A stretch of 64,000 bases of DNA, taken from positions 14,196 through 78,195 of the forward strand of contig CAYMXN010000002.1 in NCBI GenBank assembly GCA_964394435.1, in the 5' to 3' direction. Under the pieces are notes generated by a model, which saw only the letters and a program-made list of their open reading frames with translations, did not search any database and was not told where the DNA came from. A program made the translations under genes and the position numbers. Shown here piece after piece: positions 3,435 to 53,922 of this stretch. Source of the stretch: an uncultured Candidatus Saccharibacteria bacterium. Its GTDB lineage: Bacteria > Patescibacteriota > Minisyncoccia > UBA6257 > 1-14-0-10-44-23. How positions within the stretch are numbered: the first letter of the stretch is position 1; each line of letters opens with the position of its first letter.

Positions 3435-5492
<2,058 letters not shown>

Positions 5493-13467: not shown

Positions 13468-13941
13468 CTAGCGAGTTACCGAGATCGTCTGTCCGAGCTC
13501 TGCCGATGGAGCAGAAACCGTCACGCGACCAGTCGTACCACCGGTCTGACTGACGTAGTAGCCGGAGTTGTATGAGCTCGTCGAGGTCCAAGCAGCATTC
13601 GCAGCCGATGGGTCAAACGGCATAGATGGAATATACGTGTCTACTAAACAAGGACCGATATTGTAGCCACCCGAAGACGCCATAAGACTCGAGCTAGCTG
13701 GAATTGCCGATCCGCAAGTAAAGACACCACGGTTATCAGCCATATTTTGGCCAATAGCGTTAAGGATCGCGTTCACGTTCGCAGAGCGCTGCGTGTTGCG
13801 AGCCTGGGCAAACTGACGGGCTGGGTTCAAAGCTACGATGACGACAGACGCCAAGATAGCGATGATACCGATTACTACTAATAACTCAATAAGCGTAAAA
13901 CCCTTCGACTGACTCAGGACGATGCCTTTTTGTTTGTTCAT
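13468..13941 (-). CDS. pilA: type IV pilin (major pilin paralog 1, extended leader)
   Basis: Class III signal peptide MNKQKGIVLSQSKG/FTLIELLVVIGIIAILA with Glu at +5. Divergent C-terminal domain. Confidence 0.85.
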   Translation of the reverse strand: MNKQKGIVLSQSKGFTLIELLVVIGIIAILASVVIVALNPARQFAQARNTQRSANVNAILNAIGQNMADNRGVFTCGSAIPASSSLMASSGGYNIGPCLVDTYIPSMPFDPSAANAAWTSTSSYNSGYYVSQTGGTTGRVTVSAPSAELGQTISVTR

Positions 13942-13997
13942 ATGGTAGAAATTATATCATATTCTGTTCAATTCCCTATCTAGGCTTATCCACAAAC

Positions 13998-14026
13998 AAA
14001 AAGAGCCCGTTGGGCTCTTTTTGTTT
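13998..14026 (-). terminator. intrinsic terminator after pilin gene 2
   Basis: AAAGAGCCCG-TTG-GGCTCTTTTTG. Confidence 0.6.
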
Positions 14027-14034
14027 GCTCATGA

Positions 14035-14484
14035 CTAGCGGCTAACGGAAATTACCTGGCCCAACTCTTGAGCTGGGGCGGCAACCGTTACGCGACCACT
14101 GGTCGCATCACGCAAAACTGTGTAACCAGTCTTGTATGAGCTCGTCGAGGTCCAAGCAGCATCTGCAGCTGATGGGTCAAACGGCATAGATGGAAGGTAG
14201 GTCGTGACTAAGCAAGAAGCGATGTCGTAACCACCTGACGAAGCCATCTCTGTCGCGGTTGATGGCAAAGCGCCGGCACCACACGTCCAGTTACCACGGT
14301 TATCGGCGATATTCTGACCGATAGCGTTAAGGATCGCGTTAATGTTCGCAGAGCGCTGCGTGTTGCGAGCCTGGGCAAACTGACGGGCTGGGTTCAAAGC
14401 TACGATGACGACAGACGCCAAGATAGCGATGATACCGATAACCACGAGAAGTTCGATGAGGGTGAAACCCTTTTGTTTGTTCAT
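14035..14484 (-). CDS. pilA: type IV pilin (major pilin paralog 2)
   Basis: MNKQKG/FTLIELLVVIGIIAILASVVIVALNPARQFAQARNTQRSAN. 97 nt are identical to paralog 1. Confidence 0.88.
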   Translation of the reverse strand: MNKQKGFTLIELLVVIGIIAILASVVIVALNPARQFAQARNTQRSANINAILNAIGQNIADNRGNWTCGAGALPSTATEMASSGGYDIASCLVTTYLPSMPFDPSAADAAWTSTSSYKTGYTVLRDATSGRVTVAAPAQELGQVISVSR

Positions 14485-14593
14485 TTTTTCGTTTTGAAAA
14501 TAAAACTCGACCTTTCCTATACCCTAAGAATAGCAAAGCTATGCAAAGCTCGCCATTTATCGCTGTGTATAACTACCCAAGCTATAGCCTTAT

Positions 14594-16087
14594 CTATCTC
14601 ACCTCTTCCCAGCTGATAATATCGTATTGACTCGCGGTAATTGGGAAACTCGGCGGTGGCCCGTAGAGCAAGTTCCCGTCGTACGTAATAATGCGCGTGT
14701 TATACCCCGTACCGTCCGTATACGCAAACCCGTAACGCTGATTAGTTGCGAGCATACCATAGAGCGTAATTTTGCTACGCTTATACTCTGTACCGCAGCT
14801 TGAGCTGTAGTAGTACCGGCCGATGCGACCGTTTTGAGCCACGAGCGCCGCATCAATCTCGAGATCATCATCACTCTTTAAGGCGGCGTTGATATTTCCC
14901 TGGGTCATCAAACTGATCACGTCTTGCCCGTCGTAGTTTGTATACAATAAGTCGCTGTTAATAGTGATGTTGGCGTAGGTATTAGAACTTACTGGGAAGC
15001 GGCCGGAGGCGATCGTAAGTCGCGCGGTGTTGATTTTGCCACGCACCCAAATATCATCTTCGAAAAAGAGTAGACCGTTAGCCGGGAACGCGACATTAGT
15101 CGCTACTGATGAGGTCGTGTTGATAGACCACGTTCCCCAGCCGGTCGACCCATCACTATTACAGTTATTTGGAGCATTTTTTAATCCCGTCACCTTATAC
15201 ACATCAAAGGTGTCGTTTGTTTTTAACACAATCTCATACCCCTTTGAGCCCGATGGTCCTTTGTAATATCCGCTTGATGAGGCGGCGGTTTTTATATTTG
15301 CGAGATCGGTTGTAATACCGTTAAAGTCAACGGCTGGTACGGGGAAGCTGCGACCGGCAGTAAATACATCGGTACGCGTCGGCACTGCGGCTGGCGGTAG
15401 CGGGTCAACAGTTCCCGAGTGCGTATGCACGCCAAACTCCTGTCCACCGGAGTGGTCCGGATCATCATACTTATCTTTCGCGCTCGTCACGACGTTATGC
15501 GCCACACCGTCAAAACGAATACCGCCATTACTGTGCAGCTGACCATACACATCGGTTCCCTCTCCAAAACGAATATCTGCATTAGCAGCAACCGAATAAC
15601 GCGCGAGTGATGGCAAACCCATCTTTACCTTAATCACCTTATACGCGGTTGGGTCCGAATCAACGCGACCAGTTGAAGTAATCGTGGTAATCGTAGTGCC
15701 ACTCGCTGGCGTAGTAATTTGTAGCTCAAACTGACCAAGCCGATTTCCGTCTTTGTCGTTATATACGTGTACATAAGGCTGTGTAGACGTTCCTGTTCCA
15801 TCCTTAAAATCTTGCGGGGCGTGGGCTAAGTGCCAGCGATAATACTCGATACCACTCTCGGCGATTGTAAAAGCGAGCGACTTATACTGATCACGGCTCA
15901 CGCTCTTTACATACGTATCAGACCAGAGCACAAATCCCGATATCAATAAGATTGAAATGAATCCGAATAAAAGAACCTGGATAGCCAGCTGACCTGACAT
16001 AGCTGATGGCCTTCGACTCGCAAATGTTAGTTTGAAAAAAGGAATATACATACTATTTGTATCGAAGATTACGAATCGTCGCCTCAT
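14594..16087 (-). CDS. pilus-associated large secreted protein (possible PilX/PilY-like tip or assembly factor; start may be the internal Met at 16000)
   Basis: N-terminal TM helix, then a long Thr/Ser/Gly-rich extracellular region. It sits between the minor pilins and the major pilin genes in one operon. Confidence 0.55.
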   Translation of the reverse strand: MRRRFVIFDTNSMYIPFFKLTFASRRPSAMSGQLAIQVLLFGFISILLISGFVLWSDTYVKSVSRDQYKSLAFTIAESGIEYYRWHLAHAPQDFKDGTGTSTQPYVHVYNDKDGNRLGQFELQITTPASGTTITTITSTGRVDSDPTAYKVIKVKMGLPSLARYSVAANADIRFGEGTDVYGQLHSNGGIRFDGVAHNVVTSAKDKYDDPDHSGGQEFGVHTHSGTVDPLPPAAVPTRTDVFTAGRSFPVPAVDFNGITTDLANIKTAASSSGYYKGPSGSKGYEIVLKTNDTFDVYKVTGLKNAPNNCNSDGSTGWGTWSINTTSSVATNVAFPANGLLFFEDDIWVRGKINTARLTIASGRFPVSSNTYANITINSDLLYTNYDGQDVISLMTQGNINAALKSDDDLEIDAALVAQNGRIGRYYYSSSCGTEYKRSKITLYGMLATNQRYGFAYTDGTGYNTRIITYDGNLLYGPPPSFPITASQYDIISWEEVR

Positions 16088-16685
16088 TTTCTACCCCAAC
16101 GATTGATGGCGTACTTGTTGAAGGGCTTTGATTTGCGATTAGCGATATTTTCACTGTCTTTATTTTCAGCGGATCAACCGGCGATGGAAGTGCTATAGAT
16201 TGAGTGCTGGTTGCGCTCGCGTCGTAATACGAAAATATCTGCCCACTCATCATATTATGAACCATATCTCTTACATCTTCACTGGAGCTTGGGTACGTTA
16301 CTGGGTTACCAGTTGGGCGAATCACCCCCTTCTGGAAGGTTGTACCGTTAAGAAAATATCGCACCTGATCGTACCCGCCATCACGATCAATGTCGCTGTA
16401 AAACGCAAATGAACCCGAAGCGGCGCTGATAATCGGATATGCTCCATTGTTTGATTGCGCGATCGAACGAATCTCCGGCAGCATAATCTGTAATGTTTGC
16501 TGCATCTCTTGCTGTACGATCAGACTGTTATTAAAACGAAGGCTATATTTTGTCAGATCACTTCCCAATAAACCGACCGCCATTGCGATTCCTGCAACAA
16601 TACCCATCACAATAAGAAGCTCGATAAGCGTAAAGCCACGCGTCTCGCCTTGATCCCTCCAGCTCTGTATCTGTATTTTTTTCAT
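16053..16685 (-). CDS. type IV minor pilin / pseudopilin
   Basis: Prepilin N-terminus ..ETRG/FTLIELLIVMGIVAGIA. Confidence 0.78.
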   Translation of the reverse strand: MKKIQIQSWRDQGETRGFTLIELLIVMGIVAGIAMAVGLLGSDLTKYSLRFNNSLIVQQEMQQTLQIMLPEIRSIAQSNNGAYPIISAASGSFAFYSDIDRDGGYDQVRYFLNGTTFQKGVIRPTGNPVTYPSSSEDVRDMVHNMMSGQIFSYYDASATSTQSIALPSPVDPLKIKTVKISLIANQSPSTSTPSIVGVENEATIRNLRYK

Positions 16686-16692
16686 ATATCTA

Positions 16693-18468
16693 TTATTGGA
16701 GAGTTAAGCGTTTTTCTTGCCAGCCACTTACGACCGAAACCGAACTGGTCGCAGTAGTATAGCCGGACTTACTAACCGTCATCGTATAGGTGCCGGTTGG
16801 GATATTACTAAATAATGTTTGCCCCTGTGGTACACAGCTTGATGTGAATCCGATCTGAACACTTGAGAGTGTCGGCGTATAGTTTTGATCAACCGTGTTT
16901 AAGTACGCCTTATAACGCAGATACCGATGCCCATCATGCATAGTTCCGATCGTACTTGTTGCGGTGTAATAGGTGCTGCCCGTGCCATCTGGGCCGAGGT
17001 AGTTCCATGTACTGTTGTCGGTATTTGATGCGATCTGGAATTTTAGACAGTTTGTTCCACACTGGCTTGGTTGGGTAGTCGGCGTCCAAACAAGGTCGTA
17101 CAGTACGGTGCCGGTAGTCGTGCCAAGGTCGTATGTGTTTGAGATTAAATAGCTATTCGTACTAGTTGGATATACTCCCCCATTTTGTGCGAGCTTCACA
17201 TCACCAGCCGGATTAGCGTCGGCAAGATTGCCGTCTTGTGCGTTGTAATTTCCATTAGACCAGTCGGTTTGGCTTAAAAACTTTTTACCAGTAATTTGCG
17301 TAAGGTTTGTGCCGGTCTTAGCGATAGTAACCGTCGCTCCCAAAATCGGCGTGCTTGAGGCGTCCACAACTGTCGCCATGAGCGATGTCGAAGCTTTTGG
17401 TTCAAGTAAAAACGAAAGTCCGACCGTCGTATTTGGATCGATCGTTAATGGGGCGAGCGGAATACTGCCCGCGAGATCATACACCGCAGAAGTGTTGGTA
17501 AACGTATAGGTATCCCACTCGAGTGATGAGATCGTTTTTAACCCAGAGGTATCAGTAGTAAAACTCGAGCTATATTTATTTACATTTGGGCCGGAGCCGA
17601 TTAATTTACTGCCTACCTGATTAAATGGAATTGAGGCGACTCCGTTACACTGCGCATCTTGCGTCTTCACGTTTAGCGTACTCACCCGGTCAACACCGAA
17701 ACTGATTGAAGTTATTTGCTGCGTCGCAACCGTCGCGTGCGGCTGAATTGGATTTGGGTTAGCGGCCGCACCTGGTTTATAGGTTTGCGCTGACGAGTAC
17801 CCATTTTTACTTACCGTAATCTGATACGCGGTTGTGCTAGTCGGAATATCAACTAATTGGAGCGTGCCGGAGTTGTTTGTGCTGTCTGTGATTGAGATGG
17901 CTGGTGAAGTGCTATTGTTTACAACACTCACCGAGACGTTTCCAACTGGCTGACCGTTCGCATCAAACGTGTTGATAAAGAGTGATCCATTTTTACTGGT
18001 GGACTCGAGCGTTTGCGGTGCGACCCAGGTCGTATAGGTAACTGGGGCGAACCTAAAACAAGTTGGACAGCTCACCTCGAGCTGCACCATACGATAGTCA
18101 GCTGGCGCGGTATCGTTTGGTGTCCCGCCCTGCTTGCCATCAAACGCGTCATCGATATTACGCACATACGACTTTACGACAAATGAGTTGTTTTCGTAGA
18201 GCACGGTCTTTTGAGCCAGCAACACTCCAGCTGGCGAACCGCTGACTGTACCGACTTGGTCAAACGGAACGTTGCGCAGGATTTCGATTTCTTTATTAAG
18301 CACTGATGTCGCGAGCGTACGGAGTCTCGTGCGTCCCATAATCTCTAGCACGTTGGCGAATGTAAAATAGATACCGCCAACTAAAATCAAAAAGATGCAG
18401 ATCGTGATGAGTACCTCGATCAAACTGACGCCAGATTGGCTGTGAAGTTTACTACGCGATTGAGACAT
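16693..18468 (-). CDS. large pilin-like protein with prepilin-type N-terminus (591 aa, candidate tip adhesin)
   Basis: N-terminus SGVSLIEVLITICIFLILVGG resembles a pseudopilin. The rest is a long T/S/N-rich extracellular domain. Confidence 0.7.
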   Translation of the reverse strand: MSQSRSKLHSQSGVSLIEVLITICIFLILVGGIYFTFANVLEIMGRTRLRTLATSVLNKEIEILRNVPFDQVGTVSGSPAGVLLAQKTVLYENNSFVVKSYVRNIDDAFDGKQGGTPNDTAPADYRMVQLEVSCPTCFRFAPVTYTTWVAPQTLESTSKNGSLFINTFDANGQPVGNVSVSVVNNSTSPAISITDSTNNSGTLQLVDIPTSTTAYQITVSKNGYSSAQTYKPGAAANPNPIQPHATVATQQITSISFGVDRVSTLNVKTQDAQCNGVASIPFNQVGSKLIGSGPNVNKYSSSFTTDTSGLKTISSLEWDTYTFTNTSAVYDLAGSIPLAPLTIDPNTTVGLSFLLEPKASTSLMATVVDASSTPILGATVTIAKTGTNLTQITGKKFLSQTDWSNGNYNAQDGNLADANPAGDVKLAQNGGVYPTSTNSYLISNTYDLGTTTGTVLYDLVWTPTTQPSQCGTNCLKFQIASNTDNSTWNYLGPDGTGSTYYTATSTIGTMHDGHRYLRYKAYLNTVDQNYTPTLSSVQIGFTSSCVPQGQTLFSNIPTGTYTMTVSKSGYTTATSSVSVVSGWQEKRLTLQ

Positions 18469-18482
18469 AGATAGGTACGCGC

Positions 18483-19616
18483 TTATACCTTGATGCTCTG
18501 ACTGATTTGATAGATTGGAGTGATAACCGAAAGTGCGATGAATCCGACAAGCAAACCCATAAAGAGCAACAAGGCTGGCTCGATAACGCTGCCGATATTT
18601 TTCAAAAACTCATCAACTTCAGACTGATAAAATTCGGAAAGGTACTTTAGGTTTTCAGTTAAGTTTCCTGTGTTCTCCCCCACCTCTATCATGTTAGCCA
18701 AAATAATCGGGAATAATCTCTCATTCTTTTTTAAATAGCTTGAGAAAAAATCACCGCGGCGGAGCGTCTCGCCGGCATTTTTGAGCTCGTGACGGTAGAC
18801 GAGGTTATCGAGTGTTTCGGCAGTAATATTTACCGCCTCGATAATTTTCACACCCGAGTTGAGCAACAATCCGAGCGTACGCGTCATCGTAGTTGCGTTT
18901 ACGCGCACTGACATCTTGCCGATAACAGGTAGGCGCAAAATGAAATGGTGCCACGCGTGACGATACCAGTAGTAGTGCGAAAGAATCCAGAGTACGGCGA
19001 TAAAGAGGAAAAAGCCCAGCGCGAGCCAGATACTATTAGCAGTCATAAACTTGGAACTGGCGATAAGAATCTTGGTTGTGATAGGTAAGTCTACGCGCAA
19101 ACTGGTAAAGACCGGCAAAATTTTTGGAAATACGCCGATCATAAGCGTGGCGACAATACCAATCGTCGCGAAAAAGATAACAGCTGGGTAAATAAGTGCA
19201 CCGCGAATCTTACTGCGCAACTCCTGCTTCTTTTTAAGCTCTTCGGCGAGGTAGTTAAGGTTTTCAGTTAATGTACCAGAGGTTTCACCGACGTGAACGA
19301 TGTTAATAAAGAGCTCACCAAACACGCTCTGGTACTTGCGCATACTCTCTGACAAAAACATACCGTTGGCAGTATCAGAAATAATTTGGTCAAGGATTTT
19401 CTTAAATGAGGGCGACTTGGTTTGTCTATAAATAAGACGCAAACTATCCTGCATCGTCATGCCCGAGCGAATACCAACAGCTAAGTGGCGGGCAAAAACA
19501 ACGCGCTCCTGAAGACCAACGCGCAAAAATATATTTTGAAAAATAGACTTAGCGACCGCACCCTTTGGCTGGTCGTCGTTTTCAGTTTTCTTAACTTTTT
19601 CGGGTAAGCCTAACAT
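18483..19616 (-). CDS. pilC: type IV pilus inner-membrane platform protein PilC (GspF family)
   Basis: Two GspF-type repeats, each with three TM segments. Located directly downstream of pilB. Confidence 0.9.
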   Translation of the reverse strand: MLGLPEKVKKTENDDQPKGAVAKSIFQNIFLRVGLQERVVFARHLAVGIRSGMTMQDSLRLIYRQTKSPSFKKILDQIISDTANGMFLSESMRKYQSVFGELFINIVHVGETSGTLTENLNYLAEELKKKQELRSKIRGALIYPAVIFFATIGIVATLMIGVFPKILPVFTSLRVDLPITTKILIASSKFMTANSIWLALGFFLFIAVLWILSHYYWYRHAWHHFILRLPVIGKMSVRVNATTMTRTLGLLLNSGVKIIEAVNITAETLDNLVYRHELKNAGETLRRGDFFSSYLKKNERLFPIILANMIEVGENTGNLTENLKYLSEFYQSEVDEFLKNIGSVIEPALLLFMGLLVGFIALSVITPIYQISQSIKV

Positions 19617-19657
19617 GAGAGTTCTGTATATAAGTATACACTAGAACTACTCCACTG

Positions 19658-20917
19658 TTATTCGTGAAAGACTCTTAACACTTCTTCGATAGTTGTCATC
19701 CCCTTTACCGCTTTCTCAAAGCCATCTTCCATCATCGTTTTCATTCCTTCAGCAATCGCCTGGCGACGGATTTCGTCTGCATTAGCTTTTTTCATAATAA
19801 GTTCACGAATTTTTTCTGTAATCTCAATAACCTCGTGAATACCAATACGGCCGCGGTACCCACTCCCGTTACAGCGTGCGCACCCCTGCCCTTTATAAAA
19901 CGCGTTGGTATCGCCAAGCATCTTTTCAGAAATCGAATCTTTGAGCGCCTTTAGCTCAACGTCAGTAAATACTTTTTTAACCTTACAGTCCGGGCAAATC
20001 GTGCGCACGAGACGCTGACCAATGGCGATGTTGAGTGTTGAGGCGATCAAAAATGGCTCGACGCCTAAGTCGAGTAAGCGCGGCAAGGTCGTCGGTGCAT
20101 CGTTAGTGTGAAGTGTTGAGAGCACTAAGTGACCAGTCATAGCGGCGTTGACGGCGATACTCGCTGTTTCGCCGTCACGAATCTCACCCACCATGATGAC
20201 GTTTGGGTCCTGACGCAAGATAGAACGCAGTCCGGTTGAAAATAGTAAGCCGGTTTTGACGTTGACCTGAATCTGGTCGACGCCCGGGAGTGAGTATTCG
20301 ATTGGGTCTTCGATGGTAACAATCGAGACGTCCGGCGTATTAATTTTTTTCAAAATCATGTATAGGGTCGTCGTCTTACCCGAACCAGTTGGACCGGTCG
20401 CGAGGATTAATCCATATGGCTTTTTCATCGCACGCGCGATGCGTCCAAGATTGAGCTCGGAAAATCCAAGCTTTTCCAAACTAAACTCATCACTCGAGTG
20501 GTCGGCGAGCAAACGCATGACGCAGTTTTCGCCGAAATAGGTCGGGGTAATAGAAACACGTACGTCGAGGTTAGCTCCGTCTTTTAAGACAATACGCAGA
20601 CGGCCGTCTTGAGCGGCTTGGTGTTCGTCGGTACGTAGTCCAGAGAGCACTTTGATACGCGTAATGATTTCCGAGTGGAGCTCTTTCGGAAACTTATAAA
20701 TATCGTGGAGTACACCGTCAACGCGAAAGCGCAGACGTAAGGCGTGCTCTTCTGGATCCATATGGATATCTGAAGCGCGCATTAAAAACGCCTGCTGAAT
20801 AATAACATCAACGATTTTGATGATTGAGCGAAACGCGTCAGCCTTTTTTACCTCCTTATCAAGCGCTTCTACGTCGGCTTGGAGTTGGGGTTCTTTTTCT
20901 GTTTCGGTTTCCGCCAT
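19658..20917 (-). CDS. pilB: type IV pilus assembly ATPase PilB (GspE family)
   Basis: Walker A GPTGSGKTT, Asp box, Walker B and a tetracysteine motif (CPDCKVK...CARCNGSGYRGR). Start set at MAETETE with TATAAT just upstream. Confidence 0.92.
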   Translation of the reverse strand: MAETETEKEPQLQADVEALDKEVKKADAFRSIIKIVDVIIQQAFLMRASDIHMDPEEHALRLRFRVDGVLHDIYKFPKELHSEIITRIKVLSGLRTDEHQAAQDGRLRIVLKDGANLDVRVSITPTYFGENCVMRLLADHSSDEFSLEKLGFSELNLGRIARAMKKPYGLILATGPTGSGKTTTLYMILKKINTPDVSIVTIEDPIEYSLPGVDQIQVNVKTGLLFSTGLRSILRQDPNVIMVGEIRDGETASIAVNAAMTGHLVLSTLHTNDAPTTLPRLLDLGVEPFLIASTLNIAIGQRLVRTICPDCKVKKVFTDVELKALKDSISEKMLGDTNAFYKGQGCARCNGSGYRGRIGIHEVIEITEKIRELIMKKANADEIRRQAIAEGMKTMMEDGFEKAVKGMTTIEEVLRVFHE

Positions 20918-21125
20918 AGCGATATATCTATTATAGTACAGTTTCATTTCGCTCACGAACAAAACCGGCGCATATTGCGAAAATATGTCAAAATCTATAG
21001 AATAACGGCACGCTTCAATATCGGTAGCCAAGTGCCCCTTCTCTGCACTTCGTGACGATATTGTGGGCTCGCCAAACCGAAAGTCTTAATCAAAAGGACT
21101 GTAGGTGCTGAGCGCAGTGAAGCAT

Positions 21126-21424: not shown

Positions 21425-21495
21425 TGCCAGATCGTCTAATGGTAGGACAGCGGACTCTGAATCCGCGAATCTTGGTTCGATTCCAGGTCTGGCAG
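21425..21495 (+). tRNA. tRNA-Gln (anticodon CUG)
   Basis: Manual cloverleaf: acceptor TGCCAGA/TCTGGCA, D arm GTCT..GGAC, anticodon stem GCGGA/TCCGC with loop CTCTGAA, T arm CTTGG-TTCGATT-CCAGG. U1-A72 as in bacterial tRNA-Gln. Confidence 0.85.
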
Positions 21496-21551
21496 CAAAG
21501 TTAAAATAGGTTCGGAGTCCGAGGAGCTTAACAGATTTAAATAATTAAATT

Positions 21552-21953
21552 ATGAATAATTTTGAGCTGGAAGGATGGGACGAAATAAATCAAAACGGAG
21601 GTACTATTGGAACGGGTATAAATAAATCTATTCACAAGCTCACCGTTGCAATATTCAACTCTGGCTCAAAAACCTCTACTCATGTAGGTTATCTTAAGGA
21701 TAAGGTTGAACAGCTAAATAAGAATCTGGAAGAATCGAGTAAATCCTCCGATAGGAATTCCAGAGCGATGAAGTATTTAACCGGAGCTTTGGTTTTTCTG
21801 GGTATCGTGCAAGTTCTAGTAGCTTGGTTAAGCTATTCTGCCGATCGATCAATAATTGGAACTAAGAAAAATTGCTATAAAACTGCACTTCAAACTTCTG
21901 ATATAGAATTAAACTATAGAAGCTGCCTTCATAGCAATGGACTTTCAGAATAA
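21552..21953 (+). CDS. hypothetical single-TM protein in AT-rich island
   Basis: 133 aa with one predicted TM helix (YLTGALVFLGIVQVLVAWLSY). About 33 percent GC. Confidence 0.4.
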   Translation: MNNFELEGWDEINQNGGTIGTGINKSIHKLTVAIFNSGSKTSTHVGYLKDKVEQLNKNLEESSKSSDRNSRAMKYLTGALVFLGIVQVLVAWLSYSADRSIIGTKKNCYKTALQTSDIELNYRSCLHSNGLSE

Positions 21954-21977
21954 ATATGCTTCAAATAGTGTAATTCT

Positions 21978-23009
21978 ATGGAAGAAAGAACAAGTCCTAA
22001 GCAACTTAAGTCAGATACAAGACAGTGGAATTCTGGCAGGGTTCATTTTGCAGTCATTGGTTGGCCAGGAAAACCTGAGGATAATTATATTGTTTTTCAA
22101 AAAAATTTCTTTGGAAAAACGAAAAACCAAGACCAAAAATTCAATTTACGTTTTAGAGATTGGCAAAATCTCAAGAAGCTTATTGATGGCGAGTTGACCC
22201 CTATTACTGAGTGGGAAAAGACAATTTCTGTCGTTGACAAAGAAAGTCTCGAAAAACTCATAAATGATGATCCTGATATTTTTTCAAAAGTCCTAGCAAG
22301 TCCGAATATATTAAAGTTGAGCGATTCCAGCTTCGAATCTCTTGATCGAATTGCAGTAAAAATATACGAAGTTAAGGCAGAAAAAATTGATCTAATCTTA
22401 AAAAAGATAGCTGAGACGCCATCAGCAGATCTCGAAAAGTTTAGTACCCTATTGAATGATTTGAGACTAAACCAGATTTCAATGATGACCACTTTGGTTT
22501 ACCAGAAATTAAAAATAATTGATTTGCTTGAAAAAGTTATCATATCTCCTAGAAGTAAAGAAAAGGATGTACATCAGATTTTTGAAAAACACCCATGGCT
22601 TTTGGGGAGAGCTTTCGAAATCGTTTCAAGTGATAAGGCGCTTATAAATTATCTAGAAACAAATTTACAAGAAGACCCAGAAACCCGCGTAAGACCTGAT
22701 ATAATCGCCAGCACTATTCCTTACACAAATGATGTCGTAATTATTGAACTTAAAAAACCAGGGATTAAACTTAAGGCAAAACATATTGGACAAGTCCTGG
22801 AGTATAAGGCATTAGTACAAAGACATAAGCCAAATGTAAAGAATATAAATTGTTTTGTTTTTGGTTACGAGAAAGATACCACTTTTACTTTTTCAAAAGA
22901 TGCAACAATAAAGACTTTCTCAGAATTAGTATCAGAGCTTAGGCATGAATACAAAGAATATCAAAAAGTATTAGATGTAGGAAAAGATCTTGAAGTAGAA
23001 AATTTATGA
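21978..23009 (+). CDS. PD-(D/E)xK nuclease-domain protein, Shedu(DUF4263)/NERD-like candidate anti-phage defense protein
   Basis: C-terminal region KEKDVHQIFEKHPWLLG...RPDIIAS...NDVVIIELKKP...QVLEYK shows the D...E-x-K restriction-endonuclease-fold motif and the hPWLlG element I associate with DUF4263. The N-terminal 200 aa were not recognised. Confidence 0.55.
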   Translation: MEERTSPKQLKSDTRQWNSGRVHFAVIGWPGKPEDNYIVFQKNFFGKTKNQDQKFNLRFRDWQNLKKLIDGELTPITEWEKTISVVDKESLEKLINDDPDIFSKVLASPNILKLSDSSFESLDRIAVKIYEVKAEKIDLILKKIAETPSADLEKFSTLLNDLRLNQISMMTTLVYQKLKIIDLLEKVIISPRSKEKDVHQIFEKHPWLLGRAFEIVSSDKALINYLETNLQEDPETRVRPDIIASTIPYTNDVVIIELKKPGIKLKAKHIGQVLEYKALVQRHKPNVKNINCFVFGYEKDTTFTFSKDATIKTFSELVSELRHEYKEYQKVLDVGKDLEVENL

Positions 23010-23107
23010 TATTCCGAAAAATGGTGAAGTGATAAGATTATTGTAATTATTATAAAACACTTGTGGGGGTGAGGTATGAAAATATCCAAATCCGATGAGG
23101 TCGACAA

Positions 23108-23704
23108 ATGAATAAAAACGAATTCCCTCGAGCAATTCAGTTTCTAGAAAGTTTAAATGTCTCCTACTATATCCATGCCGGATTTGCGATGCACCTACAT
23201 GGACTCCTGTCTGACCTCGATGATTTAGATGTGCGCATCGACCACCCAAATCTCGAGCAGGTTTTAAAACAAGCAAAGGAAAATTTTGCCTGCCCCGTGC
23301 TATTAACCATCGGTGGCGAATATGATAATGGGCAGTATCGCTTTGGTCGTATAGAGATCGAAGCATCAACCCCTATCGATATCTGCTCATCAATGGGAGT
23401 TATTAATGATTGGGGCACCGTCGACTTCCCTCCCTTCGCGACCTCTTCGCTGAATAGCACGGCAATCAACTATCATGGTGTGTCGGCGCGAGTTGCCTCC
23501 CCGGAGACATTGCTGTTGTATTACCTTATCTTACGCCGGAAGCAGAATAAAAATGACAAAGAAAAAATTAGAGCCCTATTTTTATCAGGGAAAATTAATG
23601 AGGATCGATTCCGCGCGCTCTTAAAAAATAACAAACATGAATCTCAAATCCTAAACCTATATCGGTATTATAAAAAAATAGCTTCTAAACCTAGGAATAA
23701 GTAG
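23108..23704 (+). CDS. nucleotidyltransferase, Lnu/ANT-like (Pol-beta superfamily)
   Basis: VSYYIHAGFAMHLHGLLSDLDDLDVRID follows the hG[GS]x9-13Dh[DE]h NTase signature. Overall pattern resembles lincosamide/aminoglycoside nucleotidyltransferases. Confidence 0.5.
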   Translation: MNKNEFPRAIQFLESLNVSYYIHAGFAMHLHGLLSDLDDLDVRIDHPNLEQVLKQAKENFACPVLLTIGGEYDNGQYRFGRIEIEASTPIDICSSMGVINDWGTVDFPPFATSSLNSTAINYHGVSARVASPETLLLYYLILRRKQNKNDKEKIRALFLSGKINEDRFRALLKNNKHESQILNLYRYYKKIASKPRNK

Positions 23705-23726
23705 TTTTTACCAAGAAAATAATTTT

Positions 23727-24503
23727 ATGCTTCACGATTTCCTCATCTTCGCCCTTAAACAGGCGCGGGCGGCGCTGTTTGCCGGAGTGTTTTTGTTTTT
23801 GATTTTCGCCTCAAAATATATTGCGATTCCGGGATTATATCGCTACGACTTTCTCTTTTTGGCCGCAGTAGCCATTCAGCTCCTGATGCTTCTGTTTAAG
23901 CTCGAGACAGTAGATGAAGCTAAGACTATCGTCCTCTTTCACCTCATCGGTCTTATCCTTGAGATTTATAAAACCAGTCCAGCGATTGGGTCGTGGACGT
24001 ATCCGGAGCCTGGGTACCTGAAGATTTTTACCGTGCCACTGTATAGCGGATTTATGTACGCTTCGATTGGCAGCTATATCGCTCACGCGTGGAAGGGCTT
24101 TAACCTTAAACTCATCAACTCCCCTCGCTATCTCTATAGCATCATCCTCTGCGCACTTATCTATCTCAACTTTTTTACCAACCACTTTATATATGACTTT
24201 CGTCTTTTTCTTATCGCGGGAATCTTTATCTTATACCGAAAAGCTTACGTTGAGTTTACGCCGGATAAGCGCACCTATCGCCTTCCGCTTAATGTCAGCT
24301 TTTTACTCATCTCGCTCTTTGTGTGGATAGCGGAAAATATCGGAACGTTTTATGGCGCGTGGCAGTACCCTTCGCAGATTCACGCGTGGCAAATTGTTTC
24401 GTTTCAAAAAATCACCTCGTGGTTTTTGATGGTGATTATCTCCTTTATCATCGTCGCGTATTTAAAACATGTTAAGGCGGAGCGTACTTTGAATGCCGCT
24501 TAG
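23727..24503 (+). CDS. polytopic membrane protein (DUF817-like)
   Basis: 258 aa, about 8 predicted TM helices. Length and hydrophobicity pattern are consistent with the DUF817 family. Confidence 0.5.
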   Translation: MLHDFLIFALKQARAALFAGVFLFLIFASKYIAIPGLYRYDFLFLAAVAIQLLMLLFKLETVDEAKTIVLFHLIGLILEIYKTSPAIGSWTYPEPGYLKIFTVPLYSGFMYASIGSYIAHAWKGFNLKLINSPRYLYSIILCALIYLNFFTNHFIYDFRLFLIAGIFILYRKAYVEFTPDKRTYRLPLNVSFLLISLFVWIAENIGTFYGAWQYPSQIHAWQIVSFQKITSWFLMVIISFIIVAYLKHVKAERTLNAA

Positions 24504-35878: not shown

Positions 35879-36562
35879 CTACCCCTTGCCCCCTGGAGGA
35901 GGCGCGAAGGCGGCGATCGGAGTCCAGCCGAGCAACTTGTCACCTGGCTTGGACCCCTCCGGACCCTGGATCATCGGGAGCGGATCGGTCCGCTGCCCGA
36001 AGTTGAGCTCGAAGCCCGTCGCCAGACGCGAGATGAGCACGTACTCCTTCTCCTGCCCCACCGGAGCCGTGGGCAGGACCGTCGCCCCGTTGAGGACCCA
36101 GGCGCGGCGCTTGTCGCACGTGCCGACGTTGCCGCAGACCTTGACCCAGCCCGCCTCGCCGACCTGCAGCGTCGCCACCGTGAGGTGGTAGAACTGCGAG
36201 GGAACGACGGCCGGGACCGGCTTGGACGACTCGCTGGGCGACTTCATCGCCGGCACCGTCGGGCAGTCCATGTCCGACTGCGGGAGACCCGGTACGGTCG
36301 GAGCCATGAGCCACTCGTTGAAGCCCGAGGCCTCCTTGGAGTTCGGCGAGGACGTGAACGTCTTCACCGCCTGCTTCGTCTCCTTGTCGTCGCCGCTGTT
36401 CCAGCAGAGGCCGACGATGATGACGATGATCAGGACGATGATACCCCCGATCGCCACGAGGCGACCGCGGGTGATCCCCCCGGGCACCTCGTGCGGGACG
36501 GGGTCGCCGCCGGACGAAGCCGGGGCGTGGGGGTCGTGGGAATCGTGGGAATCGGCGGACAC
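35879..36562 (-). CDS. single-pass membrane protein, very GC-rich cassette E (about 66 percent GC)
   Basis: His/Asp-rich cytoplasmic N-terminus, TM helix LVAIGGIIVLIIVIIVGLCW, Pro/Cys-containing ectodomain. AGGAGG 5 nt before a GTG. Strong promoter immediately upstream. Confidence 0.55.
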   Translation of the reverse strand: MSADSHDSHDPHAPASSGGDPVPHEVPGGITRGRLVAIGGIIVLIIVIIVGLCWNSGDDKETKQAVKTFTSSPNSKEASGFNEWLMAPTVPGLPQSDMDCPTVPAMKSPSESSKPVPAVVPSQFYHLTVATLQVGEAGWVKVCGNVGTCDKRRAWVLNGATVLPTAPVGQEKEYVLISRLATGFELNFGQRTDPLPMIQGPEGSKPGDKLLGWTPIAAFAPPPGGKG

Positions 36563-46384: not shown

Positions 46385-47434
46385 TTAAAGCTTAATATCC
46401 CGTGGCTTAAGCGGGTTGTCGAGAATGTAATCGTACTTCTCGAGATTTTCTACTGCCAGGCCGGTGCCGCGAGCAACACATGTAAGTGGGTCATCTACGA
46501 TATTCACGAGCACAGAAAGTTCCTTGCTGATTAGCTGATCAATCCCACGCAAAAGTGATCCCCCACCACACATATAAATACCACGTTTTAAGATATCGCC
46601 GACGAGCTCTGGTGGTGCGACCTCAATAACCTCGCGCACCGACTCAACGATCTGCTTAAGCGATTTTGCGAGTGCGGCTCGAATATGCGTGTCTTTTAAA
46701 AGAATTTCTTTCGGCAACCCCGTGGCGAGATCGCGCCCGCGCACCGGCATCTCAAGCTTTTCAGTTGGCGGAATTGCTGACCCGATTGATATTTTTAAAT
46801 CTTCTGCGGTCGGCTCGCCAATTGCCAAGTGGAACTCATCGCGAACGAACTTAATAATATCGTCATTAAACTTATCGCCGGCAACCTTCAAGCTTTTTAC
46901 AGTAACCGTGCCACCCATTGAGATAATCGCCATCTCGGTCGTTCCTCCGCCGATGTCGATAATCATATTCGCAACTGGCTCGTGAACCGGTAAGCGCGCG
47001 CCTAATGCGGCAGCGAGTGCGGACTCGATTACGTACGCCTTAGAAACTCCGGCGCCAATAACCGCATCTTCAACTGACTTGCGCTCAACTTCGGTTAGGT
47101 CGGCTGGTACGCCGATAACTGCTTTGTGGTAGTAGCTGAAAAAATTATTCTGCCCGAGCTTTTTTAAAAATGCGCGCAAAATCTCCTGCGCCATTTCGAA
47201 GTCAGAAATAACTCCATTAACGAGCGGACGGATAACGCTGATCTGCAGCGGTGTGCGCCCAAGCATCTCTTTGGCCTCTTTGCCAACCGCAACCACCTTA
47301 CCGGTTTTGTTGTTGACGGCGACGCAGCTCGGCTCATTAATCACAATGCCCCGCCCCGCGAGATACACGAGAGAGTTGGCTGTGCCTAAGTCGATACCGA
47401 CGTCACGCTTAAAGATGCCAAATGGATTCTTCAT
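46385..47434 (-). CDS. mreB: rod shape-determining protein MreB (actin homolog)
   Basis: DVGIDLGTANSLVY phosphate-1 motif, IIDIGGGTTE phosphate-2, adenosine motif. A TTGAAT-18-TATGAT promoter lies upstream. Confidence 0.93.
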   Translation of the reverse strand: MKNPFGIFKRDVGIDLGTANSLVYLAGRGIVINEPSCVAVNNKTGKVVAVGKEAKEMLGRTPLQISVIRPLVNGVISDFEMAQEILRAFLKKLGQNNFFSYYHKAVIGVPADLTEVERKSVEDAVIGAGVSKAYVIESALAAALGARLPVHEPVANMIIDIGGGTTEMAIISMGGTVTVKSLKVAGDKFNDDIIKFVRDEFHLAIGEPTAEDLKISIGSAIPPTEKLEMPVRGRDLATGLPKEILLKDTHIRAALAKSLKQIVESVREVIEVAPPELVGDILKRGIYMCGGGSLLRGIDQLISKELSVLVNIVDDPLTCVARGTGLAVENLEKYDYILDNPLKPRDIKL

Positions 47435-52914: not shown

Positions 52915-53922
52915 TTACCTCTTATTTAAGAGTGTACGCTTGTATACGTCGAGGTGGCCCAAGATAAGGCCGGTGCCTTTAGCAACGCAGAACAGTGGCT
53001 CGTCGGCGATATAGGTCGCGACGCCAGTAATACGCTTAAAGAACTCATCAATATTGCGGAGATTCGCACCACCGCCGGAAACGATAATACCCTTTTCCAT
53101 AATGTCAGCAACGAGCTCCGGAGGCGTGTTGTTAAAGACACTCTGTACCCCACCGGCGATATCCATCAAATGTGGGTTAAGTGCCTCGGCGATTTCGTTG
53201 GAGGTAAGCGTGATGTCTTTTGGAAGTCCGCTGGCGATATCGCGTCCGCGAACTTTAGTTGAAAGTTTTTCTTTGGTCGGAAGTGCGGAACCGATTTCAA
53301 TCTTTACCGCTTCGGCAGTTTGCTCACCGATAAAGACGCCATATTTCTTTTTCACATAATCCATAATCGCCTGGTCAAACTTGTTACCGGCGACGCGCAG
53401 CGACGACCAGCTCACGATGCTCCCCAGGGATACCACCGCGACTTCAGCCGTTCCACCTCCGATATTAATGATCATATTACCCGAGTGTGAGTTGATAGGA
53501 ATATCAGCGCCGAGCGCGGCGAGAATTGGTTCTTTGACGATATAGACTTCTTTCGCTCCGGCTTCACGCGTTGCGTTAGTTACCGCACGACGCTCGGTCT
53601 GCGTAATACCTGCAGGAACAGAGATAACAACGTCTGGGCGGAAGACGTTAAATGAACCGGTAGCTTTGGCGATAAAATACTTGAGCATCGCCTTAGTAAT
53701 ATAGTAGTCGGCGATCACTCCATCTTTGAGAGGCTTGTACGCGGTAATATCTTGCGGAGTGCGGCCGATCATATTCTTTGCTTCTTGGCCGACGGCGAGT
53801 ACTTGGTTATCCGGAGAACCCAACGCGACAATAGTCGGCTCATTCACAATAAACCCTCTTCCTGGAACGAAGACGATGGTGTTTGCGGTACCTAAGTCTA
53901 TGCCGATTTTGCGTACAAACAT
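52915..53922 (-). CDS. MreB-like actin homolog (second paralog)
   Basis: KIGIDLGTANTIVFV, IINIGGGTAEVAV and the same motif order as the mreB at 46385. It is not followed by mreCD. Confidence 0.88.
   Translation of the reverse strand: MFVRKIGIDLGTANTIVFVPGRGFIVNEPTIVALGSPDNQVLAVGQEAKNMIGRTPQDITAYKPLKDGVIADYYITKAMLKYFIAKATGSFNVFRPDVVISVPAGITQTERRAVTNATREAGAKEVYIVKEPILAALGADIPINSHSGNMIINIGGGTAEVAVVSLGSIVSWSSLRVAGNKFDQAIMDYVKKKYGVFIGEQTAEAVKIEIGSALPTKEKLSTKVRGRDIASGLPKDITLTSNEIAEALNPHLMDIAGGVQSVFNNTPPELVADIMEKGIIVSGGGANLRNIDEFFKRITGVATYIADEPLFCVAKGTGLILGHLDVYKRTLLNKR

Follow-up and report, generated by a model that had tools for sequence, protein, structure and literature searches.

The stretch of DNA analyzed here (64,000 nucleotides (nt); hereafter the window) covers positions 14,196 to 78,195 of contig CAYMXN010000002.1 in assembly GCA_964394435.1, from an uncultured Candidatus Saccharibacteria bacterium, and contains two tandem pilin genes, namely, pil2 (upstream) and pil1 (downstream), which close a type IV pilus (T4P) operon. 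Comparison of their sequences indicates that pil1 and pil2 are very probably old tandem duplicates that have undergone patch-wise gene conversion between direct repeats since the lineage split. Two relatives were compared with the window: L081 (GCA_964523595.1), which is collinear with it over approximately 16 kb at approximately 85% nucleotide identity and carries the same tandem pilin pair followed by the same superoxide dismutase gene, and L082, a second close syntenic relative carrying the tandem pair. In these genomes, the pilin genes are mosaics, their duplication is older than the split, conversion occurred after the split and in both directions, and the tract boundaries vary. We infer that the exchange proceeds by RecA-type recombination, that a mismatch or edge barrier acts at the 5′ boundary, and that both genes are expressed and use one shared assembly machine. 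The process is ordinary concerted evolution, and its mechanism is not new; the locus is a new example, and full-text literature searches found no report linking pilin gene conversion to Patescibacteria.

Two tandem pilin genes and their identical block

pil2 and pil1 are head-to-tail prepilin open reading frames (ORFs) on the minus strand, 93 nt apart (aa, amino acid residues).

14035-14484, minus strand: pil2, upstream pilin gene, 149 aa, with the 6-aa leader MNKQKG and then FTLIE (ORF, PF07963, TIGR02532)
13468-13941, minus strand: pil1, downstream pilin gene, 157 aa, with the 14-aa leader MNKQKGIVLSQSKG and then FTLIE (ORF, PF07963, TIGR02532)
13777-13872, minus strand: exact 96-nt block, pil1 copy, mature codons 10-41 inside the alpha1 helix (offset 567)
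14344-14439, minus strand: exact 96-nt block, pil2 copy, an exact match to the pil1 copy
13873-13899, minus strand: unconverted FTLIELLVV codons of pil1 (TTTACGCTTATTGAGTTATTAGTAGTA), the same in the downstream copy of all three genomes
14440-14466, minus strand: unconverted FTLIELLVV codons of pil2 (TTCACCCTCATCGAACTTCTCGTGGTT), the same in the upstream copy of L081 and partly of the downstream type in L082
13903-13926, minus strand: in-frame 24-nt insertion (GIVLSQSK) in the pil1 leader, absent in the L081 and L082 orthologs

Both proteins have a class III signal peptide (cleavage context G/F, MNKQKG/FTLIELLVVIGIIAILASVVIV), with a short basic leader, Gly(−1), Phe(+1), Glu(+5), and a hydrophobic stretch of approximately 20 residues. 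The scores against PF07963 were 40.4 bits for pil2 and 31.9 bits for the other pilin (cut-off 21.2), and those against TIGR02532 were 34.3 and 31.2 bits, respectively (cut-off 16.3). The AlphaFold2 (AF2) model of pil2, based on 52 homologues (mean pLDDT 84.1, pTM 0.70), displayed the pilin lollipop, with a 53-residue helix (9-61) and strands at 78-81, 110-113, 116-125, 132-135, and 146-148. Pilins of known structure (Geobacter pilin, Thermus PilA, Neisseria PilE, and PAK pilin) were matched in sequence at E values of 1e-5 to 7e-3, mainly over alpha1, and a Foldseek search of the pil2 model against the PDB gave no significant match. From their small size, their own terminators, their low synonymous divergence, and the analogy to PilA1 and PilA2 of TM7x, we regard the two proteins as putative major (filament-forming) subunits.

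A first-pass annotation of this DNA, made from the sequence alone, had described two pilin genes with the same 50 N-terminal residues, a shared block of 97 identical nt, different codons for FTLIELLVV, unrelated C-terminal domains, and a leader 8 aa longer in pil1. The block exists and is 96 nt long, and the two ranges originally assigned to it had a mutual offset of 560, which placed them 7 nt out of register, with 29 of 97 positions matching as written. In the mature proteins (143 residues), positions 1-41 and 43-52 are the same and position 42 is V versus I, so the N-terminal identity holds with one exception. The C-terminal domains are related, because pil1 and pil2 share 75% protein identity over their full length (BLASTP, E = 5e-83), and downstream of the block the genes have three more exact matches, of 31, 25, and 20 nt. 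The longer leader was confirmed: the 24-nt insertion lengthens it from 6 to 14 residues and recreates the KG/F cleavage context. A search for a donor of this insertion found no second copy within the window.

The 96-nt block encodes IGIIAILASVVIVALNPARQFAQARNTQRSAN, and its 41-nt core occurs in the window only in pil1 and pil2. Just 5′ of it, all nine FTLIELLVV codons differ synonymously between the genes, as had been claimed, with changes at 11 of 27 nt. When the genes were aligned over 148 codons, 67 codons were changed and the longest unchanged run was 32 codons, a length reached in none of 200,000 permutations; the result holds when only amino-acid-identical codons are used. We also compared the block among members of the same pilin family, which were collected in a survey of 161 fetched loci (L numbers) holding a family member. 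Across 4003 pairs from different genomes, 63.5% of the amino-acid-identical block codons were synonymously different, and only 0.025% of the pairs had no synonymous difference, the value found for the window pair (0/32). Among pairs within a genome, 9 of 16 had at most one block difference. The identity of the block is therefore not forced by the protein sequence, since synonymous differences are this frequent between genomes and the tandem pairs of L016, L022, and L096 differ throughout. A scan of metagenome contigs with an exact 62-nt pattern from the block gave no match, and a follow-up protein scan of such contigs found relatives at 77% identity or less. When the two window pilins were looked up by exact sequence, neither had a record.

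The complete recoding of FTLIELLVV had P = 0.001 in a permutation within the gene pair and, by a hand estimate, a chance of approximately 4% under saturated synonymous divergence (dS). Selection for recoding was considered as its cause and dropped: in L003, L007, L017, L085, and L088, conversion runs through these codons, and it does so partly in L082. Because several loci have tracts running straight through the codons, the FTLIELLVV segment of the window is most plausibly ancestral sequence that conversion did not reach, lying where homology ends.

Conversion tracts in three genomes

Site patterns were analyzed in the quartet of pil1 and pil2 from the window and the pair from L081, and distances across the three genomes were calculated from six genes. 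Of the 67 informative sites in the quartet, 51 group by paralog and 15 by genome, and 1 shows the other pattern. Along the gene, they are arranged as 11 paralog-grouping sites, 6 genome-grouping sites, 11 paralog-grouping sites, a mixed stretch (1 genome, 4 paralog, 1 genome, and 4 paralog), 7 genome-grouping sites, and finally 21 paralog-grouping sites plus the 1 other. The sites thus cluster in 9 runs; none of 200,000 shuffles gave as few (P < 5e-6), and the longest genome-grouping run (7 sites) had P = 0.0004. Two tracts were delimited.

13739-13872, minus strand: tract 1 in pil1, maximal extent, bounded by the nearest paralog-grouping sites
14306-14439, minus strand: tract 1 in pil2, maximal extent, bounded by the nearest paralog-grouping sites
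13567-13632, minus strand: tract 2 in pil1, in the globular domain (IPSMPFDPSAANAAWTSTSSYN), with 7 consecutive genome-grouping sites
14131-14196, minus strand: tract 2 in pil2 (LPSMPFDPSAADAAWTSTSSYK), from site patterns and the three-genome comparison

The copies differ at 6 of 134 nt in tract 1, where all six informative sites group by genome, and at 5 of 66 nt in tract 2. In tract 1, the distance was 0.020 between paralogs within a genome and 0.047 between orthologs. By contrast, in segments A, C, and E (the FTLIELLVV codons, the middle, and the C-terminal part), the distances were 0.33-0.38 between paralogs and 0.10-0.155 between orthologs. Synonymous divergence (NG86) gave the same picture. 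Outside the tracts, paralog dS has reached saturation (1.1-1.5 or undefined). Inside them it lies below ortholog dS, at 0-0.115 for tract 1 and 0.14-0.20 for tract 2, compared with ortholog values of 0.26-0.5 overall and 0.29-0.32 for tract 1. Saturated dS outside the tracts and low dS inside them indicate that the duplication is older than the split of the genomes and that the tracts were homogenized afterward. The occurrence of both paralog types as orthologs in L081 and L082 likewise places the duplication before the split.

The relatives also show the direction and the extent of the exchange. For tract 2, L082 keeps both ancestral types, SASGASW in the upstream copy and SATNAAW in the downstream copy, whereas both copies of the window have the downstream type and both copies of L081 have the upstream type. 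By parsimony, conversion has therefore gone both ways in different lineages. Tract 1 is exact over approximately 130 nt in L081 and L082, whereas in the window 96 nt are exact and the following 38 nt contain 6 differences; in L082, the tract reaches into the FTLIELLVV codons, leaving 5 differences instead of 11. Since the boundaries differ among the window, L081, and L082, they are variable. Both tracts coincide with the two most conserved stretches of the protein, alpha1 and PxMPxDP...Y, as judged from invariant columns of the family alignment. The gene conversion proposed in the first-pass annotation is thus supported, as is the mosaicism among relatives that it had named as a check.

These observations are best explained if an ancient tandem duplication gave two complete, separately transcribed pilin genes at the end of a PilB-PilC-minor-pilin operon in a probably Paceibacteria-like genome, and if nonreciprocal homologous recombination then repeatedly replaced limited internal segments of either copy with the corresponding sequence of its partner. 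Tract 1 (at most 134 nt, 96 of them exact) covers the middle of the alpha1 helix; tract 2 (66 nt) lies in the globular domain, where it encodes the conserved PSMPFDPSA..AWTSTSSY segment. Conversion would persist in those stretches whose DNA is held sufficiently alike for recombination by purifying selection on the protein. It would stop where divergence is saturated or homology ends, namely, in the alpha-beta loop, the C-terminal strands, and the 5′ regulatory region together with the first nine mature codons. The outcome is a pair of pilins that share the same assembly helix but differ in surface and in 5′ control region.

Several points weigh against gene conversion or narrow what it means. 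"Ongoing," the word of the first-pass annotation, can mean only after the split from L081 and L082, as three genomes are not a population sample, and donor and recipient were assigned by parsimony from these three. Conversion is not separable from cycles of unequal crossing-over, and copy number ranges from 1 to 3 among loci. The synonymous divergence of the pilins is approximately half that of their neighbors, which points to some nucleotide-level constraint, yet such constraint cannot produce 0/32. Finally, every sequence is a metagenome assembly.

Unequal crossing-over, repeated so that three copies arise and a deletion then leaves hybrid genes with junctions in the shared blocks, is an improbable source of the mosaic. 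Copy number does vary (most loci have one copy, about 20 have two, and L003 and L083 have three), and identical blocks are the expected crossover points. However, tracts 1 and 2 are internal and have paralog-specific flanks on both sides, and each would need two exchanges, as is typical of conversion. In addition, the three genomes agree in gene order and have kept the two intergenic regions and the two 5′ regions.

Selection at the nucleotide level without DNA exchange, through codon bias, mRNA structure, or an embedded regulatory element, is very unlikely to have preserved the block. Between the window and L081, 18-22% of the amino-acid-identical codons of the pilins were synonymously changed, compared with 38% in seven neighboring genes; this low synonymous change fits the strong codon bias expected of highly expressed genes. 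The sense strand of the block also folds slightly better than shuffled sequences (z = −1.9, 8/200). Against these points, 7-8 of 43 block codons differ between the window and L081, and each change is common to both paralogs of a genome; the frequent synonymous differences across the family and the tandem pairs that differ throughout the region argue in the same direction. No Rfam match was found for the block at gathering or E-value thresholds, and this result, together with the marginal folding advantage, ruled out an RNA element as its explanation.

We give little credence to an assembly artefact in which near-identical repeats were merged by bubble popping or repeat collapse. All sequences are contigs of metagenomes or metagenome-assembled genomes (MAGs), collapse would also mimic grouping by genome, and the identical stretches in L054 (approximately 400 nt) and L017 (315 nt) exceed typical k-mer sizes. 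The 96-nt block, by contrast, is shorter than typical reads and final k-mers and is directly spannable. Single-base differences that collapse would erase survive near it, for example, the 6 in the remaining 38 nt of tract 1, and the same architecture is present in contigs whose names indicate different assemblers or projects (NODE_, k141_, and JGI).

Control regions, related loci, and genomic context

The two genes were also compared outside their coding regions, where the following features were found.

13992-14028, minus strand: terminator-type hairpin and U-run after pil2 (−24.1 kcal/mol, z = −6.65), conserved in L081 and L082
13434-13461, minus strand: terminator-type hairpin and U-run after pil1 (−20.5 kcal/mol, z = −4.84)
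13951-13959, minus strand: extended −10-like box TGATATAAT, 9 nt before the pil1 ATG, from the three-genome alignment
14485-14570, minus strand: nearly invariant 5′ region of pil2, approximately 85 nt, from the three-genome alignment
14506-14515, minus strand: leader motif AAAGGTCGAG in the pil2 5′ region, family-wide

The terminator hairpins were found by direct folding; a consensus promoter and terminator scan missed both. All three genomes conserve the 93-nt spacer between pil2 and pil1, whose last 25 nt, directly before the pil1 ATG, do not vary among them. The 5′ regions of pil1 and pil2 are unrelated to each other, and that of pil1 is without the pil2-type leader motif. This arrangement suggests that pil1 has a separate promoter and a nearly or fully leaderless mRNA and that its regulation is unlike that of the upstream copy. 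Because each has its own start, signal peptide, 5′ region, and terminator, pil1 and pil2 are complete, separately controlled genes and not silent cassettes.

The leader motif (consensus A(A/G)GGTC(A/G)(A/G/T), typically AAAGGTCGAG) spans very diverse Patescibacteria and may be the most novel feature of the locus. It was present upstream of 86 of 170 non-redundant family genes, with 0.028 occurrences expected per 160 nt, and elsewhere in the loci it occurred at chance frequency. An extended −10-like box (TGnTATAAT or TGnTATACT) precedes the motif by 11-17 nt, and the ATG, which has no obvious Shine-Dalgarno sequence, usually follows at a distance of 22-60 nt; examples of the motif are at 5968-5977 in L005, at 5364-5373 and 5963-5972 in L017, and at 1652-1661 and 2200-2209 in L095. 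The motif had no match in Rfam.

The first-pass annotation had also suggested, as a possibility, antigenic or host-range variation of the pilus from pilin cassettes. This part is not supported, and a programmed, high-frequency antigenic or phase variation such as that of Neisseria pilE/pilS, with one copy as the donor cassette, is highly improbable here. In its favor, tract 2 moves amino acid differences (SAADAAW, SAANAAW, and SASGASW) between the copies in both directions. However, neither copy is truncated; each has a start codon, a signal peptide, a conserved 5′ region, and a terminator. The principal tract covers the invariant alpha1 helix and homogenizes it rather than diversifying the surface. 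The unconverted variable segments have a ratio of nonsynonymous to synonymous divergence (dN/dS) of approximately 0.2, with no sign of diversifying selection, and orthologs keep their paralog-specific variable regions across the three genomes. Beyond pil1 and pil2, neither the block nor a pilin of this family recurs in the window, and a regex scan placed its sole G-quadruplex (G4) motif at 36522, approximately 22 kb away, so none lies within 20 kb of the genes.

Homologues of the window pilins gave thousands of database hits, almost all from Patescibacteria metagenome bins, including Paceibacterota, Harrison-, Colwell-, Jorgensen-, Wolfe-, and Yanofskybacteria, and others. The family retains 55-75% identity across many Patescibacteria candidate phyla, which is unusual for a putative major pilin; its first approximately 50 mature residues, including NPARQFAQARNTQR, are nearly invariant, and it has two invariant cysteines. 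In the survey, 24 of 161 loci (approximately 21 of them non-redundant) have at least two tandem copies, with two or three copies each. Approximately 13 of these approximately 21 loci show identical-codon runs of 20-134 codons, usually starting within mature codons 0-17; L094 and L111 have identical runs elsewhere in the gene, and L016, L022, and L096 have none. At the extremes, the copies of L054 (5408-5920 and 5998-6423) are identical over approximately 134 codons and those of L017 (5351-5851 and 5950-6453) over 105 codons plus 74 nt upstream, which would reflect one of three events: very recent duplication, full-length conversion, or assembly collapse. For the window itself, a recent duplication followed by rapid divergence of all but the block is scarcely conceivable, even though the tandem copies of L054, L017, and L085 are 91-100% identical overall, because paralog dS outside the tracts is approximately 1.5 compared with an ortholog dS of approximately 0.36, both paralog types occur as orthologs in L081 and L082, and the 51 sites noted above group by paralog.

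The operon closed by pil2 and pil1 (14594-21031, minus strand) includes PilB, PilC, and two prepilin-type proteins.

19658-21031, minus strand: PilB-type ATPase (T2SSE, 421 bits)
18483-19616, minus strand: PilC-type platform protein (T2SSF, 171 bits)
16693-18468, minus strand: 591-aa prepilin-type protein (prepilin motif scan)
16053-16685, minus strand: 210-aa prepilin-type protein (prepilin motif scan)
14594-16087, minus strand: 497-aa protein, a pilus operon member

The 591-aa protein has CarboxypepD_reg, PEGA, and weak SpaA-like Ig-fold domains and is a large modular pilin and a candidate tip adhesin. No prepilin peptidase turned up among the scanned ORFs of the window. Outside the pilus operon, the window is unremarkable chromosomal sequence that encodes GyrB, MreC, a sigma factor, tRNAs, and a PBP2-type penicillin-binding protein. 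This small-genome bacterium also has two MreB paralogs, encoded at 46385-47434 and 52915-53922, with MreC and the PBP2-type transpeptidase between and around them. A low-GC stretch (21425-24000; 37.6% versus approximately 48%) adjoins tRNA-Gln (21425-21496), and an ORF within it (21978-23009) has a weak, sub-threshold match to Shedu SduA_C. Because L081 carries different genes at the equivalent position (PIF1-type helicase, GIY-YIG, and DUF2726), this stretch is apparently a variable island next to the pilus operon.

Comparison with known systems

Type IV pili are thought to be central to host attachment and DNA uptake in the ultrasmall Patescibacteria. To our knowledge, almost nothing is known of Patescibacteria pilins outside the Saccharibacteria. 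The present data show that a very conserved pilin family is represented by two or three tandem copies in many Patescibacteria genomes, with exchange of sequence between the copies. Pilin trees in this group are consequently mosaics, to be built segment by segment, and MAG assembly is put at risk by identical blocks of 100-400 nt.

The tufA and tufB genes of enterobacteria are the textbook case of concerted evolution by partial gene conversion. As in concerted evolution generally, segments of pil1 and pil2 are closer between paralogs within a genome than between orthologs, and short mosaic tracts lie in the most conserved sequence. Unlike the general case, only two internal patches are involved here, and the 5′ control regions and the surface-coding parts stay paralog-specific.

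In Neisseria gonorrhoeae and Neisseria meningitidis, pilin genes likewise exchange sequence by gene conversion. The pilE-pilS system comprises one expressed gene and many silent, 5′-truncated, promoterless cassettes; a G4 structure and a small RNA (sRNA) upstream of pilE are needed, and the C-terminal surface is varied at high frequency (PMC2188579, PMC3547852, PMC13463697). In the window, by contrast, both copies are complete, the main tract is the conserved helix, and no G4 motif lies nearby.

Saccharibacteria TM7x has PilA1 and PilA2 as the major pilins of two distinct T4P systems with separate loci and machineries, and its T4P are implicated in host binding and motility (PMC11623550). The window pilins resemble them as small, lollipop-type, putatively major pilins of Patescibacteria. 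They differ in that their genes are adjacent behind a single PilB/PilC set, and the TM7x pair has not been described as converting paralogs.

The two highly similar major pilins of Streptococcus sanguinis, PilE1 and PilE2, co-polymerize stochastically into a heteropolymeric type IV pilus (PMC10628169, PMC6497953). Both systems have adjacent, highly similar, full-length genes of the major-pilin type in one T4P locus, with a shared helix and differences concentrated in the globular domain. They have no sequence relation beyond the generic pilin N-terminus, and the window genes have 5′ regions unrelated to each other, which suggests separate regulation. The co-assembly in S. sanguinis offers a plausible picture of how a pair of pilins with the same alpha1 might function. 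The combination of a shared helix with different surfaces and different 5′ regions makes heteropolymeric or alternately expressed pili a testable idea. As a tentative and still rather doubtful extension, the pair may be maintained because an identical alpha1 suits one PilB/PilC machine, with two 5′ modules that selection shields from conversion and with occasional two-way patch conversion in the globular domain that reshuffles surface residues and so tunes the attachment of an episymbiont to its hosts; the control modules would be the AAAGGTCGAG leader of pil2 and the nearly leaderless extended −10 promoter of pil1, and the subunits might be polymerized singly or together, as in S. sanguinis.

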